This document shows positions 13,396 through 62,556 of a stretch of DNA of 64,000 nt, piece by piece. The stretch is from Dehalococcoidia bacterium (GTDB taxonomy: Bacteria; Chloroflexota; Dehalococcoidia; UBA2979), in NCBI GenBank assembly GCA_020634075.1, contig JACKCJ010000001.1, forward strand, positions 10,887 to 74,886, in the 5' to 3' direction. Below the pieces are notes generated by a model. It ran no database searches. It had not been told where the DNA came from and saw nothing but the letters and a program-made list of their open reading frames with translations. Position 1 is the stretch's first letter. Each line of letters opens with the position of its first letter. Made by a program: the position numbers and the translations under genes.

Positions 13396-14439
13396 ATGGT
13401 TTCGCCCTCGAACCGCTCGACGCTCCACCACGTCAGCGATGCCGATCCCGGCTATCGCCGCATCCGGCGTGGGAACTCCTTCGAGTACGTCGACCCGGAC
13501 GGCGAACGTGTCGAGGACGACGCGACGCTGGAGCGCATCCGTTCGCTGGTGATCCCCCCGGCGTGGGAGGACGTGTGGATCTGCCGTGACCCGCGCGGCC
13601 ACCTCCAGGCAACCGGCCGCGACGCCCGAGGGCGGAAGCAGTACCGCTACCACGAGCTGTGGCGCGCCTCCCGGGCCGAGACCAAGTTCGGGAACATGGT
13701 CGCGTTCGGTGAGGCACTCCCACGCCTCCGGCGCCGCGTGGAAGAGGACCTCGGCCGCCGCGGGACACCTCGCGAGAAGGTCATCGCCACCGTCGTGCGG
13801 CTGCTCGACGTGACGGGCATCCGCGTCGGGAACCTGCAGTACGCGAAGGAGAACGAGTCTTACGGGCTGACGACGCTCCGGAACAAGCACGCGAAGGTGA
13901 AGTCCACCGGGGTCGTGTTCTCGTTCCGAGGCAAGAGCGGCGTCGAGCGGACGATCAGCGTCAAGGACCGACGCCTCGCCCGCATCGTTCGGCAGTGCAA
14001 GGAGATCCCGGGCTACGAGCTCTTCCAGTACGTCGACGAGGACGGCGACCGCCGGACGGTGAGTTCGCAGGACGTGAACGACTACATCCGCGAGGCCACC
14101 GGCTCGCACTTCACCGCCAAGGACTTCCGGACCTGGTGGGGCACCGTGCTCGGCGCGACGGCGCTCGCCGAGGCGGAGGAGCCGGCGTCCGCGACGCGGG
14201 CGAAGCGCGAGGTCGCCCAGGCGATCAAGCACGTGGCGGGCGTCCTCGGGAACACGCCTGCCGTCTGTCGCAAGTCGTACGTCCATCCCGCCGTCATCGA
14301 GGCGTACGAGCAGGGCGATCGAATGCCGTCGATGCGGCCGTCGCGCTGGCTGTCGTCCGAGGAGCGCGGAACGCTCGCGCTGCTGCGCGCGTGCAAGGCG
14401 GCACCGGCTGCGGCTGTCCGAGAGACTGAGGTAGCATGA
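13396..14439 (+). CDS. DNA topoisomerase IB (poxvirus-like bacterial type)
   Basis: Motifs IPPAWEDVWI, GRDARGRKQYRYH, RVGNLQYAKENESYGLTTLR, HFTAKDFRTW and LGNTPAVCRKSYVHP (active-site Tyr). ATG at 13396 within the 445-aa ORF. Confidence 0.85.
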   Translation: MVSPSNRSTLHHVSDADPGYRRIRRGNSFEYVDPDGERVEDDATLERIRSLVIPPAWEDVWICRDPRGHLQATGRDARGRKQYRYHELWRASRAETKFGNMVAFGEALPRLRRRVEEDLGRRGTPREKVIATVVRLLDVTGIRVGNLQYAKENESYGLTTLRNKHAKVKSTGVVFSFRGKSGVERTISVKDRRLARIVRQCKEIPGYELFQYVDEDGDRRTVSSQDVNDYIREATGSHFTAKDFRTWWGTVLGATALAEAEEPASATRAKREVAQAIKHVAGVLGNTPAVCRKSYVHPAVIEAYEQGDRMPSMRPSRWLSSEERGTLALLRACKAAPAAAVRETEVA

Positions 14440-45505: not shown

Positions 45506-45638
45506 CCCGAGGCCATCAGGCGAGGGCCACGCGGCCGCGACCCCGCGGCGGGCGCCCCCTATCCTGCCGATCCCGGCCCCGCCTTCGCGGCGCCGAGCTC
45601 TGTATGATTATGTCTTGTTGAGAGAGTGTCCCCGCAGC

Positions 45639-46133
45639 GTGGCGAAGAAGTCGAAGACAGCCCAGAAGTCGGACCAGGACCAGAGCGCCACGCTCGCGGT
45701 CAACCGTCGCGCGCGCTTCGACTACGAGATCATCGAGTCGGTCGAGGCCGGCCTCGTCCTCACCGGCACGGAGATCAAGTCGCTCCGCGAAGGCACCGGC
45801 TCGATCGCCGAGGCCTACGCGCGGATCCGCGACGGCGAGATGTGGCTCTTCAACATGCACATCCCGCCCTATGCCCCCGCCCGCGAGAACCACGAACCGC
45901 GGCGCGCCCGGAAGCTCCTGATGCACCGCCGGCAGATCGAGGAATGGGAACACCTCCTCGAGACACAGCCGCGCACGACAATCGTGCCGATGCGGATGTA
46001 CCTCACGCGTGGCAAGGCGAAGGTCCAGATCGGCCTGGCGCGCGGCAAGCGCTCCTACGACAAGCGCCAGACGATCGCCAAGCGCGAGGCCGAACGCTCG
46101 ATGCAGCGCGCCCTCCGCCACAATCAGCGCTAG
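45639..46133 (+). CDS. smpB: SsrA-binding protein
   Basis: NRRARFDYEIIESVEAGLVLTGTEIKSLR..KLLMHRRQI.. GTG at 45639. The in-frame TTGs at 45615 and 45618 are alternative starts. Confidence 0.9.
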   Translation: MAKKSKTAQKSDQDQSATLAVNRRARFDYEIIESVEAGLVLTGTEIKSLREGTGSIAEAYARIRDGEMWLFNMHIPPYAPARENHEPRRARKLLMHRRQIEEWEHLLETQPRTTIVPMRMYLTRGKAKVQIGLARGKRSYDKRQTIAKREAERSMQRALRHNQR

Positions 46134-46183
46134 CGAGCGCCTCCCCCCTGCTCCACCGCGTCGAGGGTTGCGCGTGCCGCTAC

Positions 46184-46212
46184 TTGGAGCGGTGTTCGGA
46201 ACACGCTATACT
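46184..46212 (+). promoter_or_regulatory. candidate ssrA promoter
   Basis: TTGGAG-17 nt-TATACT. The -10 element ends 15 nt before the mature tmRNA 5' end. Confidence 0.4.
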
Positions 46213-46227
46213 GGCGTTGCATCGCAT

Positions 46228-46590
46228 GGGGACGACAGGATTCGACAGGTACGTTCCGGTGCGGATCGCGGGTTGAGGTGCCGCCACCCTCACTAATCAG
46301 GCGGCAAACGGATAACTGGCAACCGTCAACTTGCCCTCGCTGCGTAACTAACGTAGCGACGTGGCCGTAGGCCCCACCTCGACGGGTTTGCGGCCGCGAC
46401 GTTAAGTCGAGGTGCCGTGCGGACCTGCGTCTCAGGGTCGCCGCACGAAAGACCAACTGAGACTGGCCGGGTCAGCCCTCAACCGCCACCGGATGGGCGC
46501 CGGCGAGAACAGTCCGTCGTGGCTACACCCGTAGACGTTCGTATCAGTCGTGCTCTGGACGGGGAGTTCAATTCTCCCCCGTCTCCACCA
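46228..46590 (+). ncRNA. ssrA: tmRNA
   Basis: The 5' GGGGACG pairs with the 3' CGTCTCC-ACCA (G3:U70 alanine identity pair). T-arm GGACGGGGAGTTCAATTCTCCCCGTCTCCACCA. Internal tag frame ...AAC CGT CAA CTT GCC CTC GCT GCG TAA (..NRQLALAA*). Immediately follows smpB. Confidence 0.92.
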
Positions 46591-46688: not shown

Positions 46689-46817
46689 CTAGTCCTTGTC
46701 CCGGGGGAGCTTGCTCACGCCCCAGAAGAACACGCCCATGCCGCTTCCGAGCAGGAACATGAAGATGCCCAGTCCAACGGGCGTTCCCCACATGTCCGGC
46801 GACCAGAGACCTTCCAT
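46689..46817 (-). CDS. small membrane protein (42 aa)
   Basis: AGGAGGG-N8-ATG. MEGLWSPDMWGTPVGLGIFMFLLGSGMGVFFWGVSKLPRDKD has one TM segment. The longer 68-aa ORF start is unsupported. Confidence 0.5.
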   Translation of the reverse strand: MEGLWSPDMWGTPVGLGIFMFLLGSGMGVFFWGVSKLPRDKD

Positions 46818-47187
46818 CGTGCGTTCCCTCCTGCCGAGTCCCTGACGCGGTCCTCGCAGCCTGCCGCGCTTCGGCGGCTCAGCTGGGGACGGCATCGGAC
46901 TCTCCGCGACCGGCCGGGACGCCTATGGACACCCGCGACAGAGCCGACCTGAGTGATGCCCGCCGTGGCGGCGGGTGCCCGGGCCGCGCTGTGCGCGCCG
47001 TGGGCCGGACGATGGAAGCACGCTCGGCGGATGGAGACCACCCCGCAGCCGTCGCGGACCGCCCGTCCCGGCGTGATCACCTCGGCACTACCCGATCTCC
47101 ACGGAAGGTCATCCCCCGATCGAGAGGATTCCATCGCTGCGGATTCCCGCGGCACTGGTGCCTGTCATTCGACTGGCAGGAGCGAGC

Positions 47188-48222
47188 ATGGCTCACCCCG
47201 ATCCACTGCTACTGGCGCTCGCGGCGGGACACGCCGTCACCGGCGAGCGTGATAGCCGAGGCCTGGTCGACTCGGCGGTCGAGCACCGCATGACCGGGCT
47301 GCTCTGGAGCGCCGTGGAGCGGGGCGAGGTCGTGCTCTCTCCGGACGAACGCCAGCGTCTGTCCGTGGTGGACATGGCGAACCGCCTCCGCGAGCAGCAG
47401 ATCGAGCGCGCGCTCGTCGAAGCGGTGCGCCGGGCCCGAGGGCTCGGGATCGAGCTCGTGACGTTCAAGGGCGTCACCGCCGCGCGCCGCTGGTACGACC
47501 GCCCCGGGGAGCGCCCCACGTCGGACCTGGACCTGCTGGTCGCTCCGCATGACCGCGCGCGCTACGCCGAGATCGTCCGCGCGCTGAATCCGACGAATGA
47601 CCTCCTGCGCGATCTCACTCCGGAGGAGCTGCTGGATTGGGCCGTCCGCGACCAGGCGATGAACGTCCGCCTGGAGGCGGACCTCGGCGCTCAAACGTGG
47701 TCCGGTCAGCCGGTGACGATCGATCTGCACGTGGACCTGCTGAAGTACGGCATCCCCGGGCGGCAGGCCGAGGAGATCTGGGCACACACGCATCTCTTCG
47801 AGCTCGACGGGGGCGAGACCGTCCGGGTGCTCGATGCGGAGGTCGCGCTCGTCCACCTCCTGCTCCACATGAACCGCGACCGCTTCGCATACCTGATCGC
47901 GTACGCGGACGTGGCGCGCCTCCTGCGGCGCGAGCCGATCGACTGGCAGTACGTGCACCAGTTCGTCGCGCGCGAGGGGCTCGACGTCCCGGTGTATGCG
48001 TCGCTGGATGCCGTCACGCAGAGCCTCGGGATCACCGTGCCGGCGCATCCACCGATCGGTGGATGGCGGGCCCTGCTCTGGAAGCGCCTGTGGAGTCCGC
48101 GCGTGCGGCTCCAGGGCCTCGAGGGGCGGAAGGGGATCCGCCGGCGCCGCCGCTGGCTCCCCGTCATGGCGCGAGGTCGCGCGATCGAGGGCATGAGCGC
48201 CTGGATCCGCGGGACGAGCTGA
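47188..48222 (+). CDS. uncharacterised nucleotidyltransferase family protein (NTP_transf_5-like)
   Basis: ...ELVTFKGVTAARRWYDRPGERPTSDLDLLV... matches the KG..Y..R...DiDlLV pattern of that family. ATG at 47188 follows GGAG. Confidence 0.75.
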   Translation: MAHPDPLLLALAAGHAVTGERDSRGLVDSAVEHRMTGLLWSAVERGEVVLSPDERQRLSVVDMANRLREQQIERALVEAVRRARGLGIELVTFKGVTAARRWYDRPGERPTSDLDLLVAPHDRARYAEIVRALNPTNDLLRDLTPEELLDWAVRDQAMNVRLEADLGAQTWSGQPVTIDLHVDLLKYGIPGRQAEEIWAHTHLFELDGGETVRVLDAEVALVHLLLHMNRDRFAYLIAYADVARLLRREPIDWQYVHQFVAREGLDVPVYASLDAVTQSLGITVPAHPPIGGWRALLWKRLWSPRVRLQGLEGRKGIRRRRRWLPVMARGRAIEGMSAWIRGTS

Positions 48223-48224
48223 CC

Positions 48225-48695
48225 GTGGTCAGAGAGGCGTCGGCAGGGATCCCGCCGGCTGCGGCCCCCCTGCTCCAGCGACGCGTTGCGCTGCGGCCGA
48301 CGTGGCTCCCGGTCATGGGCGAATCGATGGGACGCACCATCCGCGGAGGGAGCGACGTGCTCGTCGCAGCTGCGGAGGAGCCCCGCTTCGGAGAGGTCTG
48401 GGCCTTCTGCAACGCCGCAGGCGTGCTGGTGGTCCACCGCTTCGCGCGGTGCCGGCAGGGTGCGTACTACTTCCAGGGCGACGCCCACTGGCCCGATCCA
48501 CCGGTACCTCGTGCCTGGCTCGTCGGCCGCGTCCTCCGCGTCCGCTCCGGTGGCCGTGAGCGCTCCCTGGGGGGACGTGATCGCCTCGTGGGCGGCCTGC
48601 GGCTGCTGCTGCGCCGGAACGCCCGCGCGCTCGCTCGCCGTCTCGGGCTACGTCGCGTGCGTGACTCCGCGAGGGCGTTCATCCAGCGCAGATAG
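48225..48695 (+). CDS. S24/S26-like (signal-peptidase-like) serine peptidase
   Basis: PVMGESMGRTIRGGSDVLV resembles the GxSMxPT nucleophile box. VVHRFARCRQGAYYFQGD aligns by eye to the ..KRvxGlPGD box with His in place of Lys. GTG starts 3 nt after the upstream stop. Confidence 0.65.
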   Translation: MVREASAGIPPAAAPLLQRRVALRPTWLPVMGESMGRTIRGGSDVLVAAAEEPRFGEVWAFCNAAGVLVVHRFARCRQGAYYFQGDAHWPDPPVPRAWLVGRVLRVRSGGRERSLGGRDRLVGGLRLLLRRNARALARRLGLRRVRDSARAFIQRR

Positions 48696-48747
48696 CCGCC
48701 CCGGCCCGACGCCCGCCCCGGAGGCGTACTGCGGTTCCGCCGCGCAT

Positions 48748-48790
48748 TTCTCCCGAATCATCACGTTTTCTCGACAGCATCTCGGGAGAA
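48748..48790 (+). promoter_or_regulatory. 9-bp perfect inverted repeat flanking an AT-richer spacer, upstream of the small ORF
   Basis: TTCTCCCGA (48748-48756) and TCGGGAGAA (48782-48790) are separated by 25 nt (aatcatcacgttttctcgacagcatc). Confidence 0.35.
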
Positions 48791-48827
48791 TCCGCGCAGC
48801 GGTGTCGGAGGGCGTCAGGAGATCCGA

Positions 48828-48944
48828 GTGACGTACGAGCAGCCGAAGATCGTGGACCGCACCAGCGTGGTCGGTCAGCTGAACCTGGGCAGTGGCAACT
48901 ACACCCAGTCGAAGCGCGGCGGCCGGAGGGGCGGCCGCCGCTAA
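48828..48944 (+). CDS. candidate RiPP precursor peptide (38 aa), unannotated small ORF
   Basis: AGGAGA-N5-GTG. Translates to MTYEQPKIVDRTSVVGQLNLGSGNYTQSKRGGRRGGRR. 36 of 38 codons end in G/C, like bona fide genes here. A 12-bp hairpin follows. Located between the peptidase and kinase genes. Confidence 0.5.
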   Translation: MTYEQPKIVDRTSVVGQLNLGSGNYTQSKRGGRRGGRR

Positions 48945-48966
48945 GCGCGGGGCCACCTGATTCAGC

Positions 48967-48998
48967 GGGAGCCGGTCTTCCTCGGGAGACCGGCTCCC
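48967..48998 (+). terminator. strong stem-loop after the small ORF (attenuator/processing hairpin; no U-tract)
   Basis: Perfect 12-bp stem GGGAGCCGGTCT/AGACCGGCTCCC with an 8-nt loop, 22 nt after the TAA. Confidence 0.5.
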
Positions 48999-49065
48999 TC
49001 CTCTACCGAAGCCGGGACCTGCCGACTCCCGGCTGATGCACGCAACCGGACGGAGACACTGACGC

Positions 49066-50007
49066 ATGCACGGACGAGTCCTGCTGCTCGCGGATGTCCC
49101 GACGGAGCTCATCGCCGCGACCGAAGCCCACGCGGGGGCGTTGGAGCTGATGTTCGCCGCGCTCCCCTCGACGGACGCGACACCGTGGGCACGCATTGAC
49201 TTCGCGCCCGGGCACATCGACCTGCCTGCCCGGCCGTGCGACGAATCCCTCGGCGACCTGCAGTGCTGGCATGAGCCTGGCGGCGTGGTCGTGGAGCACG
49301 TCTCCGGAATGACTGCGCGCGTCCACGATGGGACCGCCACGATCCGGGGCGACGGAGCCGACCTCGCGCTCGTCCTCCGGTGGATCTGCCAGCCCGTCCT
49401 TGCCTACCTCCTTGCCCCCTTCGACCGGTTCTTGCTCCACGCCGGCGCGGTCGGCCGCGAGGGACGCGCGCTGGTGCTGCTCGGCCAGACCGGCAGCGGG
49501 AAGTCCACGTCCACCTACGCGGCGCTCCGCGCGGGATGGGACGTGCTCGGCGACGACCACGTGGTCCTCCGCCGCGGGAGCAGCGGCATCGAGGTCACCG
49601 GCATCCCGAAGCCGCTCTCCGTGCCCGGCGAAGTCGCGGCCGACCTCCCCCACGGTGCGCGGCGGATGCACGACGTGCGCGACCGCTGGGAGCTCCCCGC
49701 CGACGTCATCGCGACGGGCTGGTGGCAGCTCTCGAGCGCCGTCGCCGTCCGCCACGCGGACTCCCTCGGTGGCGAGGTCGAGCCCGTCGACCGCCTGCGG
49801 CTGCTGCGCGAGATCATCGCCGCGTTCCCGGCCTCGGGCTCACGAGAGCCGCTGGGGCGGTTCATGCCGCTCGCCGGGGAGCTGAGTCGGCTTTCCCACA
49901 GTGAGCTACGGCTGGGCCGCGATCCTGGTCAGCGTGTAGAGCGGGCGCCCGCCCTGCTGGAGCGCATCCTGGCGATGGGCGTCGACCCGTTCGCCGAGGT
50001 CCGCTAA
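49066..50007 (+). CDS. HPr kinase/phosphorylase-related P-loop kinase
   Basis: LHAGAVGREGRALVLLGQTGSGKSTSTYAALRAGWDVLGDDHVVL parallels the HprK C-terminal domain (H-G-v..., GxSGxGKS, ..ADD). 313 aa. Confidence 0.78.
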   Translation: MHGRVLLLADVPTELIAATEAHAGALELMFAALPSTDATPWARIDFAPGHIDLPARPCDESLGDLQCWHEPGGVVVEHVSGMTARVHDGTATIRGDGADLALVLRWICQPVLAYLLAPFDRFLLHAGAVGREGRALVLLGQTGSGKSTSTYAALRAGWDVLGDDHVVLRRGSSGIEVTGIPKPLSVPGEVAADLPHGARRMHDVRDRWELPADVIATGWWQLSSAVAVRHADSLGGEVEPVDRLRLLREIIAAFPASGSREPLGRFMPLAGELSRLSHSELRLGRDPGQRVERAPALLERILAMGVDPFAEVR

Positions 50008-50078
50008 CCGCTCCCCGGCGTCCTTCGGCTCGACCGCAGTCAGCGTGAGCCCCGCCATCCCCTGGCGGCCGGCACGAC

Positions 50079-50906
50079 TTAGAAGCTGCTGAGCGTCCCG
50101 GAGATCCGGCCCCACCGCAGCGCCTTGGTCAGCGCCCACATCGAGAGCGGCAGCAGGACGGCCGCCATGACGGCCAGCACCAGCATCTCGTCCCAGGCCG
50201 ACAGCGGATCGTCCGTCAGGAGCGCCGCGCGAAGACCCTCGATGGCGTAGTAGGACGGCAGCATCCTCCCCACGAACTGGAGAGGCAGCGGGAGCAGCGC
50301 GATGGGGAACACCGCGCCGGCGAACAGCGTGGTCGCGGCGCGGATCAGCGGCGTGACGGGCTCGCCGCGCTTGGTTACCACGATGAATGCGGCGGACAGG
50401 ATGCCGATGCCGGCGAATGCGGCGACGTCCAACGCCGCGACCGGGATCGCCACCAGGAGCCCCGTCGCGGAGAACTCGGCGCCGAAGAGCCCGACGCCAA
50501 GCGCGAGGTAGATCAACACCTCGACCACGGCGAAGCCCATCGGAAACAGCGACGCGCCCAGCAGGAGCACCCAGAGCGGAGTCGGCGTGCTCAGGATCGA
50601 GGCGAGCGTCCCCTCCGACTGCTCCCGGGAGATCATCGAGCTGAACATCTGCGAGCCCAGCGTCGCCAGCGTGGTGCCCACGAGGCCCACGAGCACGAAC
50701 TCGAAATAGCCACCGCCGTAGCCGCTCAGTTCCGGTGAGCCGTTCACGAGCTGGGCGATGTAGAAGTACGTCGCGACCGGGAAGACGATCGACAGCAACT
50801 GCATGAGCTGCCCGAAGTGGTACGAGAGCTCGATCTTCAGGTCCCGCCGCCCGAGGGCGACGACACGGTCACGGTTCGATGAACGGAGTGCCGGCAGCGC
50901 GCTCAT
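50079..50906 (-). CDS. ABC-2 type transporter permease
   Basis: 275 aa with six hydrophobic segments. ATGA overlap with the upstream ATPase gene. Confidence 0.85.
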   Translation of the reverse strand: MSALPALRSSNRDRVVALGRRDLKIELSYHFGQLMQLLSIVFPVATYFYIAQLVNGSPELSGYGGGYFEFVLVGLVGTTLATLGSQMFSSMISREQSEGTLASILSTPTPLWVLLLGASLFPMGFAVVEVLIYLALGVGLFGAEFSATGLLVAIPVAALDVAAFAGIGILSAAFIVVTKRGEPVTPLIRAATTLFAGAVFPIALLPLPLQFVGRMLPSYYAIEGLRAALLTDDPLSAWDEMLVLAVMAAVLLPLSMWALTKALRWGRISGTLSSF

Positions 50907-51667
50907 CGGGCGGCGCCTTCCAGCGCATGCAACAGGCCGGAGACACCGTCTTCGCGCGCCCGCAGCCCGGCGGCCGTGTCGGCGAGGACCACCTCGCCCT
51001 CGTTCACGACGACCACCCGGTCGCAGATCTTGAGGACCTCTCCGAGGTCGTGGCTGGAGAGGAGCACGGCGTGCCCCTCGTCCGCGAGACGGCGCACCAG
51101 GCGCCCGACCTCGAGGCTGACCAACGGGTCGAGGCTGCGTGTGGGCTCGTCGAGCAGGAGCAGCGGGGGGTTGGCGATCAGGGCGCGAGCGACGTGCAGA
51201 CGCGTGATCATTCCCGATGAGTAGCCGAAGACCATGCGGTCGCGCCGTGCGAGGTCAGCCTGGCGCATGAGCTCATCCGCCCGCGCCCGGGCCTCCTCCC
51301 GCGGCAGCCCGGCCAGCACGCCGAACAGCGTGAGGTTCTCCATCCCCGTCAGCCGCCAGTAGAAGCCGCGGTCATCGGCGATGACGAGGCCGAGGCGACG
51401 GCGGGCCTCGAGCGACTCCGCGACGACGTCGAAGCCGTCCACGCGCACGCTCCCCGAAGATGGCTCGAGGAGCCCGGCGATGATGTGGAGGAGCGTCGTC
51501 TTGCCGGCCCCGTTGGCCCCGACGAGGCCGACGACCTCACCGCGCCCGGCGCTGAGCGAGACATCGGTGAGCGCCTGGACGGTCCTCGGGGACGCGACGC
51601 GGCTCAGGAGTCGCAACAGCCTCGGCGGTGGTTCGAAGCGCTTCGAGACGTGCTCGACCTCAAGCAT
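50903..51667 (-). CDS. ABC transporter ATP-binding protein
   Basis: Walker A GANGAGKTT, signature YSSGM, Walker B LLLLDEP. Confidence 0.92.
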   Translation of the reverse strand: MLEVEHVSKRFEPPPRLLRLLSRVASPRTVQALTDVSLSAGRGEVVGLVGANGAGKTTLLHIIAGLLEPSSGSVRVDGFDVVAESLEARRRLGLVIADDRGFYWRLTGMENLTLFGVLAGLPREEARARADELMRQADLARRDRMVFGYSSGMITRLHVARALIANPPLLLLDEPTRSLDPLVSLEVGRLVRRLADEGHAVLLSSHDLGEVLKICDRVVVVNEGEVVLADTAAGLRAREDGVSGLLHALEGAAR

Positions 51668-51929
51668 CGGTCTCCTGCACGAGTCCCTGTTCGCGCAGGC
51701 TCTCGAGGAATGCGTCGATGTCGCGTTCGAGGTCCTCGATGGTCACGTCGTCGAACCGAGGATGGAGCTGCGTGGCCAGGTCGTGCGCGCCGGCGCCGGA
51801 GTCGAGGAGTTCCCAGACCATCGTCCCGACCGTATTCAGCGAGATGAGCTCGGAGCCATCCGGCGAGACGAGCATCGCCCGCCCATCGACGGCCTCATGG
51901 ATGACATCAGGCGAACGGCGCACGGCCAT
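51660..51929 (-). CDS. PqqD family protein (RiPP recognition element-like)
   Basis: 89 aa. ..HEAVDGRAMLVSPDGSELISLNTVGTMVWELLD... is the typical PqqD fold pattern. 8-nt overlap with the ABC ATPase gene. Confidence 0.82.
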   Translation of the reverse strand: MAVRRSPDVIHEAVDGRAMLVSPDGSELISLNTVGTMVWELLDSGAGAHDLATQLHPRFDDVTIEDLERDIDAFLESLREQGLVQETDA

Positions 51930-51984
51930 AGTGCCTCCCGGACCCGCAGCGAACTCGGTGCCTCTGCACCGTCATTGACGCTGA

Positions 51985-54564
<2,580 letters not shown>

Positions 54565-54999: not shown

Positions 55000-55147
55000 A
55001 GGTAGCGCAGTCGGCGGAAGCGGGGCGGCCATCGACAGACGTACGCGACAGATCTCCGGCGTGGACTCAGTTCCTCGCGCCATCCACGGAACGTCATTCA
55101 GTCATTCATCACCCGGGCACACCGGCCCATCGGAAGGAAACAACGAC

Positions 55148-55342
55148 ATGCAGTTCATCAAGCGCTTCATCGACCAGGTCCGCACCGCTGCTCCTCGCGA
55201 GGAGGGCCAGGGGACGGTCGAGTACATCATGGTCACCGGCCTCATCGTCGGCGCCGTCGTCGTCGCGGCGCAGACCCCGCTTGCGACGGCCGTCGGCACG
55301 TTCGTGACCGCCGCGGCCGCGAACATCACGAGCGCGCTCTAG
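55148..55342 (+). CDS. flp: Flp family type IVb pilin
   Basis: MQFIKRFIDQVRTAAPREEGQG/TVEYIMVTGLIVGAVVV has the G/xxxEY processing motif and a hydrophobic stretch. GGAAGGAAA precedes the ATG. Confidence 0.82.
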   Translation: MQFIKRFIDQVRTAAPREEGQGTVEYIMVTGLIVGAVVVAAQTPLATAVGTFVTAAAANITSAL

Positions 55343-55370
55343 GGCGCACGGGACGCTGGCGGGGACCATC

Positions 55371-55859
55371 ATGAGACGCGCACTTCAGCGGGTTCGACGA
55401 GACCAGGGACAGGCGGTCGTCGAGCTCGTCCTCATCCTGCCGCTCGTCCTCGTGCTGGTCTTCGCCATCGTCGAGTTCGGCGTCGCGCTGAATGCACGTC
55501 TCACCGTGCAGAACGCGGCGTCCGAGGGTGCTCGCTACGGGTCGCTGGGTTCCCCGCCCGGCGACGCCTCCTGCGCGGCCAACACCGCGCGAGGACGCGC
55601 CCTGAGCGCGAGTGGCGGGATGCTCGACTGCTCCGAGATCACGATCACCTACCCGGGCGGCGTCGGAAGTGCCACCCGCGGTGACGAGGTCGCGGTCCAC
55701 ATCAGCCACGAGTACACCGCCGTGACCCCCCTCGGCGGCCTGCTTCAGCTCATCGGTGCTGTCGGGTTCCCCGACACCCTCACCCTGAGCGCCTGCTCGA
55801 GTGGGCGGCTCGAGCAGGCGCCCTCACCCTCGGTCTCGCATGGAGGCTCGTCGTGCTAG
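55371..55859 (+). CDS. tadE: TadE-like pseudopilin/assembly protein
   Basis: GQAVVELVLILPLVLVLVFAIVEFG, the TadE N-terminal motif. Confidence 0.8.
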   Translation: MRRALQRVRRDQGQAVVELVLILPLVLVLVFAIVEFGVALNARLTVQNAASEGARYGSLGSPPGDASCAANTARGRALSASGGMLDCSEITITYPGGVGSATRGDEVAVHISHEYTAVTPLGGLLQLIGAVGFPDTLTLSACSSGRLEQAPSPSVSHGGSSC

Positions 55860-56947
55860 CCGCGTTCCGCGCGGCCGCGCGCGAGCTCTCCGTGCGGGTC
55901 CGGCAGACCGGCGGACAGACCACGCTGTTCCTGGTCCTGTTCCTCTTCCTGTTCGGGGCGCTTGGGGCGGCCGTCGTCGACGTCGGCCTCCTCATCAACG
56001 CTCGCCGCGAGGCGCAGTCCGACGCCGACCGAGCAGCGCTCGCCGGCACGCTCGAGCTCTCGCTTTCCGCGAATCCCAGCGTGCAGGCGGCGGACGAGGC
56101 GGCAGCGATCACCAAGGCAACCGCCTGGGCGGAGAAGAACGGCGTCCCCGCGGGCGCCGGGCTCACGGTCTCCACGGTGCGGACGTGCTTCTCCGGTGCC
56201 GGCGGCGACGACGGACAGGCGACGGGGATCCAGGTCACCGTGGACCGCACACCGCCGTCGATCTTCCTCGGCGCGCTGGGGCTCACCAACTGGAACGTCA
56301 GTGCGACGGCGGTCTCGTGCGGATTCGGGCGAGACATCGCGGTGGTGATCGACCGCTCCGGGTCGATGTGCCAGGACTCGCACGGGATGACGCTCTATTG
56401 CCCCGACCCGCCCCCGGCGTGGGACCCGTTCTCGTCCGTGCAGGCGGCGGCCCTGAGCTTCGCCGGCAACTTCTCGCCGACGTACGACCAGCTGGCCCTC
56501 GTCTCGTACTCCTCGACGGCGTCCGTCGACGAGCCGCTGGGCAACTCGTTCGGTCCGGGGAGCGACTTCGAAGATGCCGTCGATGCGATGCATCCCGGCG
56601 GCTACACGAACATCGGCGACGCGATCTCCCTCGCGCGGCAGCAGCTCACCGGCTCTGCCGCCCGGTCCGACGCTGCCCACGTCCTCGTCCTGCTGACCGA
56701 TGGCGTCCCCAACCTGCCCGACAACACCACCACCGGTCAGACGTACGCCGAGACGCAGGCACAGCTCGCGGCCGACGACGGAATCCTGATCTACGTCATC
56801 GGGCTCGGTGACGGCGTCGACGGCGACTTCCTCCAGGGAATCGCCTCCATCGGCGGCGGCATCTACCTCAACGCCCCCGAGGCATCCGACCTCCAGGGCG
56901 CCTTCCAGACCATCGCAGACCTCGCCCAGCCCCGGCTGACGCGGTAG
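55853..56947 (+). CDS. tadG: TadG-like pilus assembly protein with von Willebrand factor A domain
   Basis: N-terminal TM segment with GGQTTLFLVLFLFLFG. vWA MIDAS motif VVIDRSGSM and ..LLTDGVPN.. Confidence 0.8.
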   Translation: MLAAFRAAARELSVRVRQTGGQTTLFLVLFLFLFGALGAAVVDVGLLINARREAQSDADRAALAGTLELSLSANPSVQAADEAAAITKATAWAEKNGVPAGAGLTVSTVRTCFSGAGGDDGQATGIQVTVDRTPPSIFLGALGLTNWNVSATAVSCGFGRDIAVVIDRSGSMCQDSHGMTLYCPDPPPAWDPFSSVQAAALSFAGNFSPTYDQLALVSYSSTASVDEPLGNSFGPGSDFEDAVDAMHPGGYTNIGDAISLARQQLTGSAARSDAAHVLVLLTDGVPNLPDNTTTGQTYAETQAQLAADDGILIYVIGLGDGVDGDFLQGIASIGGGIYLNAPEASDLQGAFQTIADLAQPRLTR

Positions 56948-56966
56948 CGCACGAGCGGAGCGCATT

Positions 56967-57815
56967 ATGTCTCGCATCACACGCCTAGTCGGAAGACGGA
57001 ACGTCCCGATCCTGCTCGCCCTCCTCCTGGGCGGAGCGACCTTCATCGGCGCGCTCGCGTGGCTACCCACGTTGTCGGATGGCGACACGACGCCGACCGT
57101 CGAGACGCGGTCCGTCCTCGTCGCCCGCGACGACCTCAGCGCAGGCGAACGCCTCGACCGCTCTCGCCTCGCGCTCGTGGAGGTCCCCACCGACGTCATC
57201 GCGACGGGAGCGCTCACACGGATCGAGGACGGCGAGGGCCAGGTGCTCCGCTACCCGGTCGAGGCCGGCGAGCAGATCCTCGCCTCGAAGTTCGTCGGCG
57301 CGGAGCGCGCCGAGGCTACCGGCCTCGCGTTCGTGGTCCCCGAGGGCATGCGGGCTGTCTCCGTCCCGGTGACCGAGGTCACCGGCGCCGGTGGCCTCAT
57401 CGTCCCCGGTGACCGCGTCGACGTCCTCGCCGCGGTCTCGGAGACGTTGCTCGTCGGGGCCGACTACCCCACCGAGGGACCCGAGGCCGACATCGCACGG
57501 CGCGAGGCGCCCACGGCGATCGTCACGGTGCTGCAGAACGCGCTCGTCCTCGCGGTGGGCCAGTCCGTCAGTGACACCTCGTCCGTGTCCCGCGACGACG
57601 GTGCGCAGCGCGCGGACGACGCCACCCCCGACCCCAAGGCGGTCTCGGTGACACTCGCGGTCTCACCCGAGGACGCCCAGGCGCTGTTCATGGCCGTGAC
57701 CGAGGGCTCGATCGGGCTCGCACTCCGCTCCTTCGGTGACACGTCGAGCGCCACCGTGGCGCCCATCGTCGACGTGGCTCCGGCGGACGACCAGCCGAAG
57801 GTGAGCGCACGATGA
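56967..57815 (+). CDS. cpaB: Flp pilus assembly protein CpaB (SAF domain)
   Basis: N-terminal anchor, then VLVARDDLSAGERL..VEVP.. SAF-like region. Confidence 0.85.
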   Translation: MSRITRLVGRRNVPILLALLLGGATFIGALAWLPTLSDGDTTPTVETRSVLVARDDLSAGERLDRSRLALVEVPTDVIATGALTRIEDGEGQVLRYPVEAGEQILASKFVGAERAEATGLAFVVPEGMRAVSVPVTEVTGAGGLIVPGDRVDVLAAVSETLLVGADYPTEGPEADIARREAPTAIVTVLQNALVLAVGQSVSDTSSVSRDDGAQRADDATPDPKAVSVTLAVSPEDAQALFMAVTEGSIGLALRSFGDTSSATVAPIVDVAPADDQPKVSAR

Positions 57816-59026
57816 CCAGCCTCCAGGAACGCACCCACGTCGACGCCGCCGGCGCCTCCTCGGTGCTCGTCGTCGACCCCAATCTCGACAGCCGCCTGGA
57901 CGCCGTGACGGCCGTGAAGCAGGCCGGACTTCCGCTCGCGGGCGAAGCCCCCTACGGCGCGGAGGCGACCTTCCTCGAAGCCGACCGAGCGCCCGCGCTC
58001 ATCCTCGTCGCGCTCGAGGAGCCACCGATGCGCGGCATCGCCACCATCGAGGCGATCCGCCGCCAGAACGCGAACGCCGCGGTGGTCGTCTACTCCTCCA
58101 GCGCCGCACCGGAGCTGCTCCGCCAGGCGATGCGCGCCGGCGCGCGGGACTTCCTCGCGAAGCCCCTCTCGGCGCGCGACGTCACCGAGGCCCTCGCGTT
58201 CCGGGCTGACGGACCGGGCGATGACGGCGAGGCTCCCGGGAATCGCGAACGAGGCACCGGGACCGTGATCACGGTGGCCGGCGCGAAGGGCGGCATCGGC
58301 AAGAGCACGCTCGCCGCCAACCTCGCCGTCGCGCTCCGAGAGATCACGTCGCAGGACGTGGCGCTCCTCGACACGGACGTGCAGTTCGGCGACATCGGCG
58401 TCATCTTCGATGTCGAGCCCCCTCACGACCGCTGCGTCTCCTACCTCGGCCGCGAGGGCGTGACGCTCTCGCGCGACGTGGTGGCGGAGTCGCTGATCCG
58501 CCACGAGTCCGGCATCGACATCCTCGCGGTACTCCCCGAGCCGAACGACTGGCGCGTGGTGCGGCCCGAGCAGGTGGCGCGCCTGGCGCGCGCCCTCGCG
58601 GAGACGCACGAGTACGTCGTCGTCGACACGCCCGGCACCATCAACGAGGTCGTTGCCGCGGCGCTCTGCGAGGCGGACGTCATCCTGCTGGTGACCTCGC
58701 TCGAGATGTCCAGCATCAAGGACACCAAGACGGCCGTCCGGGTGCTCGGCTCGCTGGGCGTGGACTCCGGGCGGATCCGCCTCGTGATCAACGACAGCAC
58801 GTCGGCGTCAGCGATCACCCCGGACGACGTCGCCGAGGCCACCGGACTGCCGGTGGCGACCAGCATTCCCCACGACCGCCAGCTTGGACGCAGCGTCCAG
58901 CGAGGCGTCCCCGTGTACCTGGAGCACCGCGGCGGGACCTTCCCGCGCGCCGTCGCCGACCTCGCCGGCTCGCTGGCCGGCGTCACCACCGGCTCGCGGC
59001 GACGGCGCCTGCCTTTCCTCCGGTAG
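57812..59026 (+). CDS. cpaE: CpaE/TadZ-like pilus localisation ATPase (pseudo-receiver + MinD/ParA domain)
   Basis: Receiver-like N-domain in which the phospho-acceptor position reads LILVALEEP (no Asp). Deviant Walker A GAKGGIGKST. Confidence 0.85.
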   Translation: MTSLQERTHVDAAGASSVLVVDPNLDSRLDAVTAVKQAGLPLAGEAPYGAEATFLEADRAPALILVALEEPPMRGIATIEAIRRQNANAAVVVYSSSAAPELLRQAMRAGARDFLAKPLSARDVTEALAFRADGPGDDGEAPGNRERGTGTVITVAGAKGGIGKSTLAANLAVALREITSQDVALLDTDVQFGDIGVIFDVEPPHDRCVSYLGREGVTLSRDVVAESLIRHESGIDILAVLPEPNDWRVVRPEQVARLARALAETHEYVVVDTPGTINEVVAAALCEADVILLVTSLEMSSIKDTKTAVRVLGSLGVDSGRIRLVINDSTSASAITPDDVAEATGLPVATSIPHDRQLGRSVQRGVPVYLEHRGGTFPRAVADLAGSLAGVTTGSRRRRLPFLR

Positions 59027-59050
59027 CCACGAACGAAACGAGGTAGCGAC

Positions 59051-60340
59051 ATGACCGCCGAGGTCACCCCCATCACACGACGAGAGAGCGACGGCGACAC
59101 GATCCGCCAGGGCTTTGTCGAACGCATCCACGACCAGGTGATCCGCGAGCTCGATCTCCGCTCGCTGGAGAAGCTGCCCGACGACGCCCGACGCGGACGG
59201 GTCGAGGCGTCGATCGGGGCCGCGCTCAACTCGCTCCCCGGCGCCCCGGCCGGTGTCGCCCGGCGACAGATCGTGGAGCAGGTCGCCGCGGAGGTCCTCG
59301 GGCTCGGCCCGATCCAGGCGCTCCTCGATGACCCCGATGTCAGCGAGGTCATGGTCAACGGCCCGCGCGAGGTCTACTTCGAACGTGACGGCGTGCTGCA
59401 CGAGGCCGAGGCCTGGTTCCGGGACGCCGAGCACATCCGACGCGTCGCGGACCGCATCGTGGCGCCCCTCGGCCGCCGCCTCGACGAGACCTCGCCGATG
59501 GTCGACGCACGCCTACCGGATGGGTCACGCGTCAACGTGGTCCTGCCGCCGATCGCGGTGAACAGCCCGACCATCACCGTCCGCAAGTTCCGGCATGACC
59601 GGTTCGACATGAACGACCTCGTGCGCATCGGATCGCTCAGCGAGCAGGCGGCCGACTTCCTCCGCGAGGCGGTGCGATGCCGCACGAGCATCCTGATCTC
59701 CGGCGGCACCGGCAGTGGCAAGACCACGCTCCTGAGCGCCCTCTCGGAAGCCATCCCGGAGACCGAGCGCATCGTGACGATCGAGGACCCGATCGAGATC
59801 CGGCTGCGCCAGCGCCACGTCGTCACGCTCGAGGCACGCCCGGCTGTCACCAGCGCGAAGTCCGCCGTCACGCAGCGCGATCTCGTGCGGAACGCCCTCC
59901 GCATGCGGCCCGACCGCATCATCATCGGCGAGGTCCGGGGCGCCGAGGCCTTCGACATGATGCAGGCGATGAACACGGGACACGAGGGTTCGCTCAGCAC
60001 CGTGCACGCGAACACCCCTCGGGACGCCCTGTCGCGCGTCGAGAACATGGTGATGATGGCCGGGTTCGACCTGCCCGTCACCGCCATTCGGGAGCAGATC
60101 GCCTCGGCGCTCTCGCTCGTGATCCAGGTCAGCCGCCTCCCGGATGGGAAGCGCTGCGTCACCGCCATCTCCGAGGTGACGAGCCTCGAGGGCACCGTCA
60201 TCGGCCTCCAGGACGTGTTCCGCCTGGAACGCGGCTTCGGCCCCGAGGGGCACGTCCAGACCACGCTCGTGGCGACGGGCGTCCGTCCCCAGTTCGCGGA
60301 CAAGTTCGGCGACCGGCCGAGCCTCCCGGCGCAGCGGTAG
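59051..60340 (+). CDS. cpaF: CpaF/TadA family secretion ATPase
   Basis: Walker A GGTGSGKTT, EDPIE, GEVRG and the His box TGHEGSLSTVHAN. Confidence 0.95.
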   Translation: MTAEVTPITRRESDGDTIRQGFVERIHDQVIRELDLRSLEKLPDDARRGRVEASIGAALNSLPGAPAGVARRQIVEQVAAEVLGLGPIQALLDDPDVSEVMVNGPREVYFERDGVLHEAEAWFRDAEHIRRVADRIVAPLGRRLDETSPMVDARLPDGSRVNVVLPPIAVNSPTITVRKFRHDRFDMNDLVRIGSLSEQAADFLREAVRCRTSILISGGTGSGKTTLLSALSEAIPETERIVTIEDPIEIRLRQRHVVTLEARPAVTSAKSAVTQRDLVRNALRMRPDRIIIGEVRGAEAFDMMQAMNTGHEGSLSTVHANTPRDALSRVENMVMMAGFDLPVTAIREQIASALSLVIQVSRLPDGKRCVTAISEVTSLEGTVIGLQDVFRLERGFGPEGHVQTTLVATGVRPQFADKFGDRPSLPAQR

Positions 60341-60351
60341 GCGGTGCCACG

Positions 60352-61305
60352 ATGGAACTCCACGTCATGCTGCTCGCCTTCGCCGCCGCCGCGGCGGCGG
60401 GCTTCGCCTCGCTCGCGGTGGCCCGCAGGCTGCTCGCGCACGATCTCGCGGTCGGCGAGCGGCTCGCCGGCCTCACCTCGGTGACCGAGACGAACGCCTC
60501 TCGGATGAACACCGACCGGCATGCCGCGCTGCGCAGCCTGGTGCCCCGGGTCCCGGGCGCACGGCCCCAGCTCGACCGCGCCGGCGTGAGGATGACCTCC
60601 GCCCAGTTCGCACTGGCGCGCCTCGCGCTGATCGCGGTGATGGCCACCGCCGGTGCGGTGGCGGCAGACACGATGCAGATCGCGCCGCCGGCCGGGATCC
60701 TCGCCGGTGCCGTGGTCGGATACCTCGCCCCCGTCGTCGTCCTGCGCTGGCGGACGGCGCGCCGTGGACGGCGCGTCGAGGGCCAGCTCGTCGAGTTGTG
60801 CGAGGTGATGGCCTCGATGCTCACCGCCGGCTTCGGCTACATGCAGGCACTCCGCGAGGCCGCCACCCAGGTCGGCGGCCCGCTGGGCGAAGAGGTGACG
60901 CGGTTCCTCGACGCGGTGAGCCTCGGCGCGGACTTCGAGGTCGCCCTGGGCGAGGTGCGCGAACGCCTACAGAGCGACGACTTCGAGGTCGTCGCGACGG
61001 CGCTCGAGGTGCAACGGCGGACGGGCGGCAACCTCGCGGAGATCCTCGACGGCGTCGCGATCACGATCCGCGACCGCCAGACGTTCCAGCGTGAACTCCG
61101 CGCGCTTACTTCGCGGGAACGGTTCTCGGCGGTCATCGTCGCCGCCTTCCCGCTCGGCCTGGTCAGCGTCCTCACGCTGATCATGCCCGAGGTCTTCGGA
61201 CGGCTCTTCACCGATTCGGTTGGCCAGATCGTGCTCGGCATCGCGCTCGGGCTCGATGCGCTCGGATACGTCGTCGCGCGCCGGCTCGCGACGCTGGAGG
61301 TGTGA
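60352..61305 (+). CDS. tadB: type II secretion system F family protein TadB
   Basis: T2SSF domain pattern (..MLTAGFGYMQAL.., ..GGNLAEILD..) with TM segments at both ends. Confidence 0.85.
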   Translation: MELHVMLLAFAAAAAAGFASLAVARRLLAHDLAVGERLAGLTSVTETNASRMNTDRHAALRSLVPRVPGARPQLDRAGVRMTSAQFALARLALIAVMATAGAVAADTMQIAPPAGILAGAVVGYLAPVVVLRWRTARRGRRVEGQLVELCEVMASMLTAGFGYMQALREAATQVGGPLGEEVTRFLDAVSLGADFEVALGEVRERLQSDDFEVVATALEVQRRTGGNLAEILDGVAITIRDRQTFQRELRALTSRERFSAVIVAAFPLGLVSVLTLIMPEVFGRLFTDSVGQIVLGIALGLDALGYVVARRLATLEV

Positions 61306-61306
61306 G

Positions 61307-62194
61307 ATGGAAGCGATGCTGGCGGCCTCGGCCGCACTCGCCGTGGCGTTCCTCGTGATCGGGCTGAAGCCCGGCGCCGGCGACCGGCGGACACGGGAGC
61401 GCGTCGCCTCGTTGCGCGACGAGACGCGGTTCGGCCTGCCCGTCGAGACCGCTCCCGAGGAGGACGACGCCGTCGCCCACCTGGCCGATCGCCTCGGGCG
61501 TCTCGCTCCGCACGCAGTCAGAGATCGCCTCGCCGACCTCATCGCGCGCGGCGGGCTTCACTGGCACGCGGAACGCGTGATCGCGGCATGGGCGACGGTC
61601 GCCGTCGTCGCAGGCTGCGCCGTCGCCTGGTGGTACGGCGCCGGTGAGCCCTCCTCGCGTCGAGGACTCGCGGCGCTCGTCGTGATCGCAATCGTCGCCG
61701 TGCTGCCGTGGTACCTCCTGCGCCGGCGCGCGGATCGACGCGTCCGCCAGATCAGCCGTGGGCTGCCCCAGGCGCTGGACCTGATCGTGACGAATATCGA
61801 GGGCGGCCTCGGCCTGCAGGCCGCGCTGCTCGTGGTCGCTCAGAAGGTCGAGGGGCCGATCGGCGAAGAGTTCGCACGCGCGACCGCGGAGATCAGCGTC
61901 GGCGTCCCTCGCGGCGAAGCGCTGATGGCGATGGCGGAGCGCACCGGCTCGGACGACGTGCAGGCCGTGGCCCGCGCGATTGCGCAGGCCGAGCGCTCCG
62001 GGATCTCGATCGCGCAGCTGCTGCGGGCGCGCGCCACGGAGATGCGTGAGCGCCGTCGGCTGACGGCCCGCGAACAGGCCAACAAGGTCCCGGTGAAGAT
62101 GACGATCCCCGTCGTGTTCTTCATCTTCCCCACGTTCTTCCTCCTGTTGCTGACACCGGTGGCGCTCAACGCCGCCGAGGTGATGGCGCAGTAG
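61307..62194 (+). CDS. tadC: type II secretion system F family protein TadC
   Basis: Second T2SSF paralog (..LPQALDLIVTNIEGGLGLQAAL.., ..ERSGISIAQLL..). Starts 1 nt after the tadB stop. Confidence 0.85.
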   Translation: MEAMLAASAALAVAFLVIGLKPGAGDRRTRERVASLRDETRFGLPVETAPEEDDAVAHLADRLGRLAPHAVRDRLADLIARGGLHWHAERVIAAWATVAVVAGCAVAWWYGAGEPSSRRGLAALVVIAIVAVLPWYLLRRRADRRVRQISRGLPQALDLIVTNIEGGLGLQAALLVVAQKVEGPIGEEFARATAEISVGVPRGEALMAMAERTGSDDVQAVARAIAQAERSGISIAQLLRARATEMRERRRLTAREQANKVPVKMTIPVVFFIFPTFFLLLLTPVALNAAEVMAQ

Positions 62195-62196
62195 CG

Positions 62197-62556
62197 ATGC
62201 GCGAGATCAGCCTCGAGGGGAGCGACGCGCTCGTCACGGCTTCAGTCGCGGACTCGTTCCTGACGCGCGGACGTGGCCTGCTCGGACGCGCGTTGCCGGG
62301 TCCCGGCCACGGCCTGCTGCTGCGCCGATGCAGCTCCGTGCACACCTGCTTCATGCCGGGCCCGCTCGACGTGGTGGGACTGCGTCGGCTCGACGACGCC
62401 GAGATGGAGGTCACATGGCTGTCCAGGGACGTGCCGCCGTGGCGGCTGAGGTTCGCGCGGAACCACACGCAGGACATCCTCGAACTACGCGCCGGCGAGA
62501 TCGCGCGGATGGGTCTCGCAGCAGGCGATCGGCTGCGGGTCGTGACGCCTTCCTGA
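62197..62556 (+). CDS. DUF192 domain protein
   Basis: ..TRGRGLLGR....GLLL..C.SVHTCFM..PLDVV.. matches the DUF192 (COG1430) pattern. Confidence 0.72.
   Translation: MREISLEGSDALVTASVADSFLTRGRGLLGRALPGPGHGLLLRRCSSVHTCFMPGPLDVVGLRRLDDAEMEVTWLSRDVPPWRLRFARNHTQDILELRAGEIARMGLAAGDRLRVVTPS

Follow-up and report, generated by a model that had tools for sequence, protein, structure and literature searches.

The question raised by the locus described here is what enzymes of the kind that decorate phosphorylated and glycosylated lasso peptides are doing at a site where the enzymes that make a lasso are missing. The locus lies at positions 47188 to 51929 of a stretch of Dehalococcoidia DNA of 64,000 nucleotides (contig JACKCJ010000001.1, positions 10,887 to 74,886), the whole of which is referred to as the window and which has a G+C content of about 70%. 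It consists of two convergent operons encoding a nucleotidyltransferase, a peptidase, an HPr-kinase-related P-loop protein, a PqqD-family protein and the two components of an ABC exporter, together with an open reading frame (ORF) of 38 codons. A previous description made from the letters alone (the sequence-only reading) regarded this as an uncharacterised system resembling those for peptides that are ribosomally synthesised and then modified after translation (RiPPs), endowed with the accessory set of phosphorylated or glycosylated lasso clusters, and an ORF listing finds its six proteins and the small ORF at the positions that it had reported. The analysis presented here upholds that description, through the conservation of the genes as a unit, the presence of a precursor and cores that would form no ring. 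We favour the reading, with a probability of roughly 0.6, that the locus is an autonomous, leader-dependent RiPP cassette centred on its kinase; the product is probably an undescribed kind of modified, secreted linear peptide. At the level of sequence, the locus contains what is generally looked for in a RiPP cluster, namely a precursor, a recognition element, modifying enzymes, a protease and a transporter, all of them conserved together.

The precursor peptide

The gene at 48828-48944 (plus strand) encodes a peptide of 38 amino acids, with the leader MTYEQPKIVDRTSVVGQLNLGSG and the tail NYTQSKRGGRRGGRR, and has an AGGAG Shine-Dalgarno site 7 nt before its GTG start. When the DNA around homologues of the kinase was fetched, a homologous small ORF was found in every locus with enough sequence. 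Ten distinct versions, including that of the window, adjoin kinase homologues, and each homologue has a Shine-Dalgarno site. They have in common a leader of the form MTY(E/Q)xPxIVER..VVGQL..GSG, which is followed by a hypervariable tail, and they are 35-41 residues in length, with the exception of a shorter one at locus L026. Behind a leader ending in GSG, the tail is NYTTKRHGRRGGRR in L023, PRNGGGGRGGRR in L001, PRGPKGPKGPKFPF in L020, KRGGGRHGGRHGGFGKRD in L021, NGYAYGIGRGNGPK in L005 and NYSGNYFFFRNR in L004, whilst in L022, where the leader ends in PSG, it is PRGGGRPGGGGRPGRR. The two remaining versions are those of L026 (29 amino acids, L026 1770-1859; MTYERPAIVERIEIVAHLNTDSWDDPSHN, with the acidic tail NTDSWDDPSHN) and L013 (40 amino acids; MDYQAPKVIERISIDGLLGCEELPFLCPPDGGTGSDIRGV). 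Across the set, the tails range from cationic to acidic to Cys-containing.

In all eight Dehalococcoidia precursors the residues T2, Y3, P6, I8, V14, V15, G16, Q17, L18, S22 and G23 are invariant. Tyr3 is found in all ten versions and Thr2 in nine, L013 having Asp at this position. Ser22 is likewise present in nine of the ten, at a constant spacing from the leader motif, and it is the sole hydroxyl residue past position 13 in L001 and L022. Most of the invariant leader residues are specified by two to four different codons, and the G+C content at third codon positions (GC3) is 0.75-0.92 across the Dehalococcoidia precursor genes (0.92 in the window); such synonymous variation at invariant residues indicates purifying selection on the protein. 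With its ten homologues, its leader and this codon pattern, the ORF that the sequence-only reading had listed as unannotated is taken to be a real, conserved precursor-peptide gene, a conserved leader joined to a hypervariable tail being the signature of a RiPP precursor.

Searches with the peptide itself recovered little. A version of 41 amino acids, used as the query in a word-indexed protein search, had no word in common with any database entry; a scan of JGI metagenomes with a DNA pattern of the leader returned two contigs only, both from lineages already found; and a scan of a genome collection with a single peptide pattern returned 9 loci.

The stop codon of the precursor is followed by a potential RNA hairpin of 14 bp with a 4-nt loop (48967-48998, plus strand), for which the folding energy is -39.9 kcal/mol and the z score -3.75. 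A strong hairpin follows the precursor stop at nine of the ten loci, although the sequences differ. It probably sets the ratio of precursor to enzymes, acting as an attenuator, a terminator or a stabiliser.

Conservation of the cassette

About eight Dehalococcoidia lineages (the window, L023, L020, L001, L021, L022, L005 and L004) carry the seven genes with their order unchanged. The genes that surround them are unrelated between lineages, and include Usp and luciferase-like genes, amidase and MgtC genes, PEP-utilising enzymes and response regulators, and copper genes and a recombinase. Recurring in such different contexts, the gene set is conserved as a neighbourhood in related genomes, in keeping with the earlier proposal that it constitutes a system. 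In L021, a gene for a large serine recombinase with Resolvase and Recombinase domains (12197-13921) lies about 4 kb from the cassette, which hints at mobility.

Beyond the Dehalococcoidia, a metagenome-assembled genome (MAG) of Actinomycetota, L013, whose kinase is 38% identical to that of the window, contains the peptidase, precursor, kinase, nucleotidyltransferase and ABC genes in a rearranged order. L026, with a kinase that is 41% identical, keeps the kinase, a divergent PqqD protein and an MTYExPxIVER leader, while the tail and the neighbouring gene differ; L026 may therefore be a differently tailored branch of the family. The persistence of kinase, PqqD protein and leader together in L026 argues that the kinase is the core enzyme. 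The neighbouring gene in L026 belongs to the lysophospholipid-acyltransferase family.

Absence of the lasso-forming enzymes

YxxPxL is the leader motif of actinobacterial lasso peptides (PMC6784204), and the cassette has its counterpart in the invariant Y3-x-x-P6-x-I8, together with a PqqD-type B1 chaperone. This is the only one of the four defining properties of a lasso cluster that it possesses; the cyclase, the B2 protease, and a core Asp/Glu at position 7-9 with a leader Thr at -2 are lacking. The sequence-only reading had stated that the window contains neither cyclase nor B2 protease, and a motif scan and the reading of ORFs brought none to light. No Asn-synthetase-type lasso cyclase is present in the 64-kb window, in which the only SGGxDS motif is that of guaA, and no transglutaminase-like B2 protease is found in the cassette. 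The profile searches covered the cassette proteins only; the flank genes of the window were judged by reading the GC3-supported ORF translations, which look housekeeping-type. Gene calling at seven homologous loci, out to 3-8 kb from the cassette, gave neither a cyclase nor a B2 gene.

The leader motif, B1-like chaperone, kinase, nucleotidyltransferase and ABC exporter are nevertheless typical of Firmicutes-type lasso clusters, and it might be supposed that the cassette is one half of a split cluster, the cyclase and B2 protease of which are encoded elsewhere in the genome. The cores speak against such an arrangement. Beyond position 16, Asp and Glu are lacking from seven of the eight Dehalococcoidia precursors, which makes a macrolactam lasso ring impossible, and where a core might plausibly begin there is no conserved Thr in the penultimate position of the leader. 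The cassette also carries its own dedicated protease, and the flanks of its homologues, as described above, are without the missing pair. A split lasso cluster was consequently rejected, as the core sequences contradict ring formation; the same chemistry makes it very unlikely that a partner cyclase is encoded outside the 64 kb examined.

The kinase

The kinase gene (49066-50007, plus strand) encodes a P-loop protein of 313 amino acids, which is placed with the ScmC type (PF27840) and, by its motifs and its AF2 fold, among the HPrK/PEPCK-fold kinases. By Pfam thresholds it falls short of PF07475. In NCBIfam it matches HprK_rel_A and HprK_rel_B across the P-loop core only and well under their cut-offs; with the former (TIGR04352) the match extends over only about 65 residues and scores 43.1 bits, where the cut-off is 200. 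Its homologues are annotated, in precomputed data, with the newer Pfam family PF27840, 'ScmC'. H125, G140, G145-K146-x-T148 and D163-D164 are invariant among them. A profile of the kinase matched the solved HPrK/P structures 1jb1, 2qmh and 1ko7 at E 5e-4, spanning the H..GxSGxGKS..DD core, and an AF2 model (pLDDT 90.5) was matched by Foldseek to ATP-dependent PEPCK over both domains (8e-10) and to HPrK/P 1knx (2.5e-6). As modelled, with its catalytic motifs intact, the protein has the look of a competent phosphotransferase of the PEPCK/HPrK superfamily.

When 1.84 billion representatives were searched exhaustively with HMMER, the kinase retrieved 68 clusters at E<=1e-30, a number that rises to 313 at E<=1e-10 and to 4485 at E<=1e-3. 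More than 150 full-length relatives share 30-41% identity with it; those that carry a name from their source are called 'hypothetical proteins', and an organism is named for two, both from Acidimicrobiia MAGs. A search of a plasmid collection yielded three weak, partial matches only. Two relatives, P0042 and P0059, are fusions of a cassette-type peptidase with the kinase (local HMM E 3.8e-36 and 8.2e-34; Pfam S24 2.6e-4), and a PqqD gene lies immediately 5' of P0042, arrangements which suggest functional coupling.

Other relatives are found in different company. P0045 and P0109 are fusions of a GT2 glycosyltransferase-TPR protein with the kinase, and the distant kinase of L014 lies inside a polysaccharide locus, among GT4, rml and Wza genes. 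In L007/L008 and L009, distant kinases are accompanied by PqqD, several GT2 glycosyltransferases and a long NTP_transf_5 protein. Solirubrobacterales MAGs (L007/L008/L015/L018) have a conserved locus with two kinase paralogues, a PqqD protein of 142 amino acids, three GT2 glycosyltransferases, a methyltransferase and an NTP_transf_5 protein of 701 amino acids, in which a leader-like small ORF was not found. A regular-expression search for lasso-like leaders in the distant kinase loci L007, L009, L014, L015 and L019 returned nothing convincing.

ABC-2 pumps are often glycan exporters. It is worth considering that the enzymes act on a non-peptide substrate such as a glycan or lipid of the envelope, that the ABC-2 pump exports a glycoconjugate and that the small ORF is regulatory or unrelated. 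The association of distant kinases with GT4, rml and Wza genes or with GT2-TPR domains speaks for this possibility. We regard this as improbable. A PqqD-type peptide chaperone accompanies the enzymes in every case, the small ORF has the matching recognition motif and the conserved-leader, variable-core pattern, and the kinase is fused in relatives to a protease; moreover, no gene for sugar biosynthesis or glycosyl transfer is found in or beside the cassette.

The peptidase

The gene at 48225-48695 (plus strand) has a GTG start 3 nt past the stop codon of the nucleotidyltransferase gene, and its fold match and invariant motifs mark the product as an S24/S26-fold Ser-His peptidase and a candidate leader peptidase. 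It matches Peptidase_S24 weakly (8e-4; 19.5 bits, the cut-off being 23.3) and the archaeal-type signal peptidase model TIGR02228 at E 0.018. The motifs GxS34M, VVH71R and GDA are invariant in its homologues, and His71 is aligned to the catalytic Lys of the signal peptidase I structure 4me8; a Ser-His pair is the arrangement found in signal peptidases of the Sec11/SipW type. An AF2 model built with database homologues (pLDDT 78.5) was matched by Foldseek to LexA 6a2r (2.9e-4), SEC11 7p2q (3.8e-4) and SipA 4n31; the folds matched comprise the LexA C-domain, SEC11A/C, which are the catalytic subunits of human signal peptidase, lambda cI and SipA. By its model, the enzyme is a member of clan SF, with the LexA/signal-peptidase fold and a Ser34-His71 pair, and is described as divergent because its Pfam S24 score is under the cut-off. 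The LexA, SEC11 and SipA fold matches support the statement in the sequence-only reading that a signal-peptidase-like protease occupies the operon in place of the lasso enzymes. A word-indexed search of 5.8e9 proteins found 12 homologues, and the peptidase is judged to be specific to the cassette.

At the C-terminus of the peptidase is one predicted Arg-rich helix of about 39 residues (residues 117-155, 48573-48692), and there is no membrane anchor. On both counts the enzyme is predicted to reside on the cytoplasmic side; the helix may be a membrane-surface or partner-binding element that replaces the membrane anchor of signal peptidases. The candidate cleavage sites of the precursor are VVG16|Q, S22|G23 and GSG|x, and the site rules of signal peptidases and of LexA are well established. 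V-V-G16|Q fits the signal-peptidase rule of a small residue at -1 and an aliphatic one at -3, and is the sole candidate that also occurs in L013 (I-D-G|L). LexA-type enzymes cut at Ala|Gly and Cys|Gly, to which S22|G23 is similar.

Nucleotidyltransferase, chaperone and exporter

The first gene of the plus-strand operon (47188-48222) encodes a nucleotidyltransferase of 344 amino acids of the NTP_transf_5 family (PF14907; E 7.6e-29, 101.5 bits against a cut-off of 31.2). Its frame is open from 47158, and the ATG at 47188 is preferred on account of an AGGAG Shine-Dalgarno site and agreement with homologues. A Pol-beta-type motif, G95..S112-D113-L114-D115, and the residues D179/H181/D183 are invariant in 9 homologues, and no meaningful match was obtained when its sequence was compared with solved structures. 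A weak match to AbiEii (E 0.012) could be taken to indicate that the locus serves in anti-phage defence, or as a toxin-antitoxin module, with an AbiEii-like nucleotidyltransferase at its centre, and the variable flanks, the tmRNA gene that adjoins the cassette in the window and the recombinase near it in L021 would suit such a module. PADLOC, however, gave generic ABC ATPase matches only and no system-specific match, and a peptide chaperone, a precursor and an exporter form part of the set. This explanation, which we consider far-fetched, was rejected for want of support.

The minus-strand operon begins with a gene for a stand-alone PqqD-family peptide chaperone of 89 amino acids, or RiPP recognition element (RRE; 51660-51929, PF05402 1.7e-15), which scores above the Pfam cut-off but under those of the NCBIfam ScmD, PqqD and lasso PqqD models. 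Its closest solved relatives are 9x8z_B, a 'PqqD family protein', and the lasso chaperones TbiB1 and TfuB1. It is followed by genes for a DrrA-like ABC ATPase of 254 amino acids (50903-51667, minus strand; PF00005 3e-29, TIGR01188 drrA 4.2e-62) and a DrrB-like ABC-2 type permease of 275 amino acids (50079-50906, minus strand; PF01061 2.2e-17, TIGR00025 6.6e-13). The ATPase gene overlaps the PqqD gene by 8 nt and the permease gene by 4 nt, and the permease gene is convergent with the kinase gene. The ABC_tran and ABC2_membrane matches exceed the Pfam cut-offs; drrA and drrB are the best NCBIfam matches, with scores below the subfamily cut-offs. The pair thus resembles exporters of the DrrAB type in its overlapping ATPase and permease genes, and differs from them in falling below the drrA and drrB cut-offs. 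Of the family assignments made in the sequence-only reading, those to PF14907, PF05402 and the ABC families stand above their cut-offs, whereas the S24 match falls below its own and PF07475 is not reached.

A proposed pathway

In paeninodin and pseudomycoidin biosynthesis, a homologue of HPr kinase phosphorylates the C-terminal Ser of the lasso precursor, and an adjacent nucleotidyltransferase, in some cases part of a fusion with the B2 protease, attaches one or two hexoses to the phosphate (PMC8498205). The spacing of 3 nt between the nucleotidyltransferase and protease genes of the cassette is a similar association. By analogy, the PqqD protein of the cassette would bind the leader and hand the peptide to the HPrK/PEPCK-fold kinase. 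The kinase would then phosphorylate a hydroxyl at a set distance from the leader motif, the likeliest being Ser22 of the conserved (G/P)-S-G, and the NTP_transf_5 enzyme would attach a sugar or nucleotide to the phosphate, in the manner of its homologue acting on the phosphoserine of pseudomycoidin. The cytoplasmic Ser-His signal-peptidase-like protease would remove the leader, and the DrrAB-like ABC-2 pump would export the linear product, a cationic peptide rich in Gly and Arg in the lineage of the window; the same pump may in addition shield the producer. We favour Ser22 as the site because of its fixed spacing in nine of the ten precursors and because it is the only downstream hydroxyl in L001 and L022. 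Phosphorylation or phospho-glycosylation of Ser22 specifically is nevertheless a tentative proposal, argued by analogy, which we hold to be less likely than not.

Several points weigh against the reading of the locus as a kinase-centred RiPP cassette. The site and the nature of each modification are deduced from sequence, and L013 has a precursor without Ser22. The known lasso kinases act on a C-terminal Ser, whilst none of the ten precursors ends in Ser. The occurrence of distant kinases in polysaccharide loci such as L014, or fused to GT2-TPR proteins, implies that the family is not confined to peptide substrates. The peptidase is under its Pfam cut-off, and cleavage at GSG|x is disfavoured because three precursors have Pro at +1. 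Finally, all instances of the cassette come from uncultured MAGs or metagenomes.

The mismatch at the C-terminus also leaves room for the same RiPP cassette to perform other chemistry, such as elimination at Ser/Thr to give a dehydro-amino acid, modification of Tyr or another nucleophile, or direct AMPylation by the NTP_transf_5 enzyme, the product then being something other than a phosphoglycosylated serine peptide. Tyr3 is present in all ten precursors and Thr2 in nine, the tails include cationic, acidic and Cys-containing sequences, and the NTP_transf_5 enzyme retains a nucleotidyltransferase-type active site with no solved relative that defines its substrate. Against this, the only experimental precedent for the pair of enzymes is phosphorylation followed by hexosylation (PMC8498205), and the cassette has no lyase-like gene. 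Such alternatives are on balance unlikely, though less so than a non-peptide substrate.

On the favoured reading of an autonomous RiPP cassette, what is new is an RRE-dependent RiPP cluster with an undescribed combination of enzymes and an undescribed precursor family. A bolder proposal, to which we give somewhat less than even odds, is that of a new RiPP class which borrows the leader/B1 module of lasso peptides. The HPrK/PEPCK-fold kinase would be its class-defining enzyme and the Ser-His protease, sometimes fused to the kinase, its dedicated leader peptidase; the products would be exported linear peptides modified by phosphate, or by a phosphate-linked sugar or nucleotide, on a serine at a set distance from the leader motif; and the class, with 68 or more kinase clusters at E<=1e-30, would occur across uncultured Dehalococcoidia and Actinomycetota in company with differing accessory enzymes. 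If the favoured reading is correct, the recognition module of leader and chaperone known from lasso peptides has been turned to the making of a product that is no lasso, HPr-kinase-like enzymes can serve as primary RiPP enzymes beyond their tailoring role, and a protease of the signal-peptidase/LexA fold can take on the removal of RiPP leaders in the cytoplasm. Such a result would provide a first functional foothold on the pairings of ScmC/HprK-like and PqqD proteins, so far computational families only, and would make uncultured Chloroflexota a further source of unusual modified peptides rich in Gly and Arg. Rule-based genome miners keyed on the lasso cyclase probably leave such cassettes unclassified.

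Regulatory sequences and flanking DNA

A promoter-like block lies upstream of each operon. That of the plus-strand operon (47090-47129) consists of GATCTCCACG, a spacer of about 19 nt and GAGGAT, and is also found 5' of the nucleotidyltransferase gene in L001, L005, L020, L021 and L022. That of the PqqD operon (51986-52026, minus strand) consists of CACCGCGTCTCGACT, about 20 nt and TAGAAC, and is conserved in L001, L005, L021 and L022. The two convergent operons have in common a block of the form CACC(T)G(A)TCTC(C/G)AC, about 19 nt, and then GAGGAT or TACGGT. Its presence before both operons and its retention in five other loci suggest co-regulation by one factor, the regulatory role of the blocks being inferred from their sequence. 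A scan for sigma-70 consensus sequences and intrinsic terminators gave nothing useful in this high-GC DNA.

The cassette is flanked by smpB and the tmRNA gene on one side and by katG on the other. The smpB and tmRNA genes (45600-46590; tmRNA 46228-46590, tag GNRQLALAA) are directly 5' of it. tmRNA genes are frequent integration sites of islands; an att-like direct repeat of the tmRNA 3' end, as would mark an integrated island, was not found downstream. An imperfect inverted repeat of 23 nt (47134-47156 and 51930-51952, 78% complementary) sits exactly at the borders of the cassette. It does not stand above many chance pairs in GC-rich DNA, and no counterpart was seen at other loci. An ORF of 68 amino acids (46689-46895, minus strand; GC3 0.81) that separates the tmRNA gene from the cassette has one hydrophobic, membrane-like segment and may be a real small membrane protein. 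Downstream of katG, translations read by eye reveal a Tad/Flp pilus locus (55061-62200), with genes for a Flp-like pilin, a TadE-like protein, a VWA protein, CpaB, a CpaE-like protein, the CpaF ATPase and TadB/C. TadE and VWA genes also lie 3' of the cassette in L005, which suggests partial synteny.

Comparison with known systems

The pairing of an HPrK-related P-loop protein with a PqqD-family chaperone is a feature of the computationally named HPr-rel-A (TIGR04352/TIGR04353), SynChlorMet (ScmC/ScmD) and GeoRSP systems. The sequence-only reading had drawn a link to the first of these, which does not stand, as both NCBIfam models score far under their cut-offs (for TIGR04353, PqqD_rel_X, 15.6 bits against 35). 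ScmC, with 16.8 bits against 125, and ScmD, with 40.5 against 100, are also below theirs, and membership of SynChlorMet was rejected on these grounds and on the lack of a radical-SAM gene in the cassette. In contrast to these computationally defined systems, the cassette has no radical-SAM partners and has its own protease, nucleotidyltransferase and precursor family. A literature search on HPr-rel-A, SynChlorMet, ScmC and PF27840 found no described function. Literature searches likewise yielded nothing relevant linking signal peptidases with RiPPs, and one unrelated paper on PF14907.

The peptidase resembles the Sec11/SipW (S26B) and LexA-like (S24) enzymes in its beta-barrel, its GxSM serine motif and, as in SEC11, a His at the position of the general base. 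Unlike them, it has neither a membrane anchor nor a DNA-binding domain but an Arg-rich helix, and relatives carry it as a fusion with a kinase.

The closest likeness is to the lasso clusters of paeninodin (PadeK) and pseudomycoidin (PsmK/PsmN). Like the cassette, these have a leader of the form aromatic-xx-P-x-(I/L), a B1-type PqqD protein, an HPr-kinase-related kinase, a nucleotidyltransferase beside the leader protease (here with a gap of 3 nt) and an ABC exporter. The cassette differs from them in lacking the cyclase and B2 protease, in place of which it has the S24/S26-fold Ser-His protease, and in having cores without the acidic residue needed for a ring and with a C-terminal residue other than Ser. 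Its kinase appears to be the core enzyme, whereas theirs is a tailoring enzyme. The recognition module of the cassette is thus judged to be of the lasso type and the remainder not, and by analogy the cassette would work most like the tailoring and export half of a Firmicutes-type phosphorylated lasso cluster.

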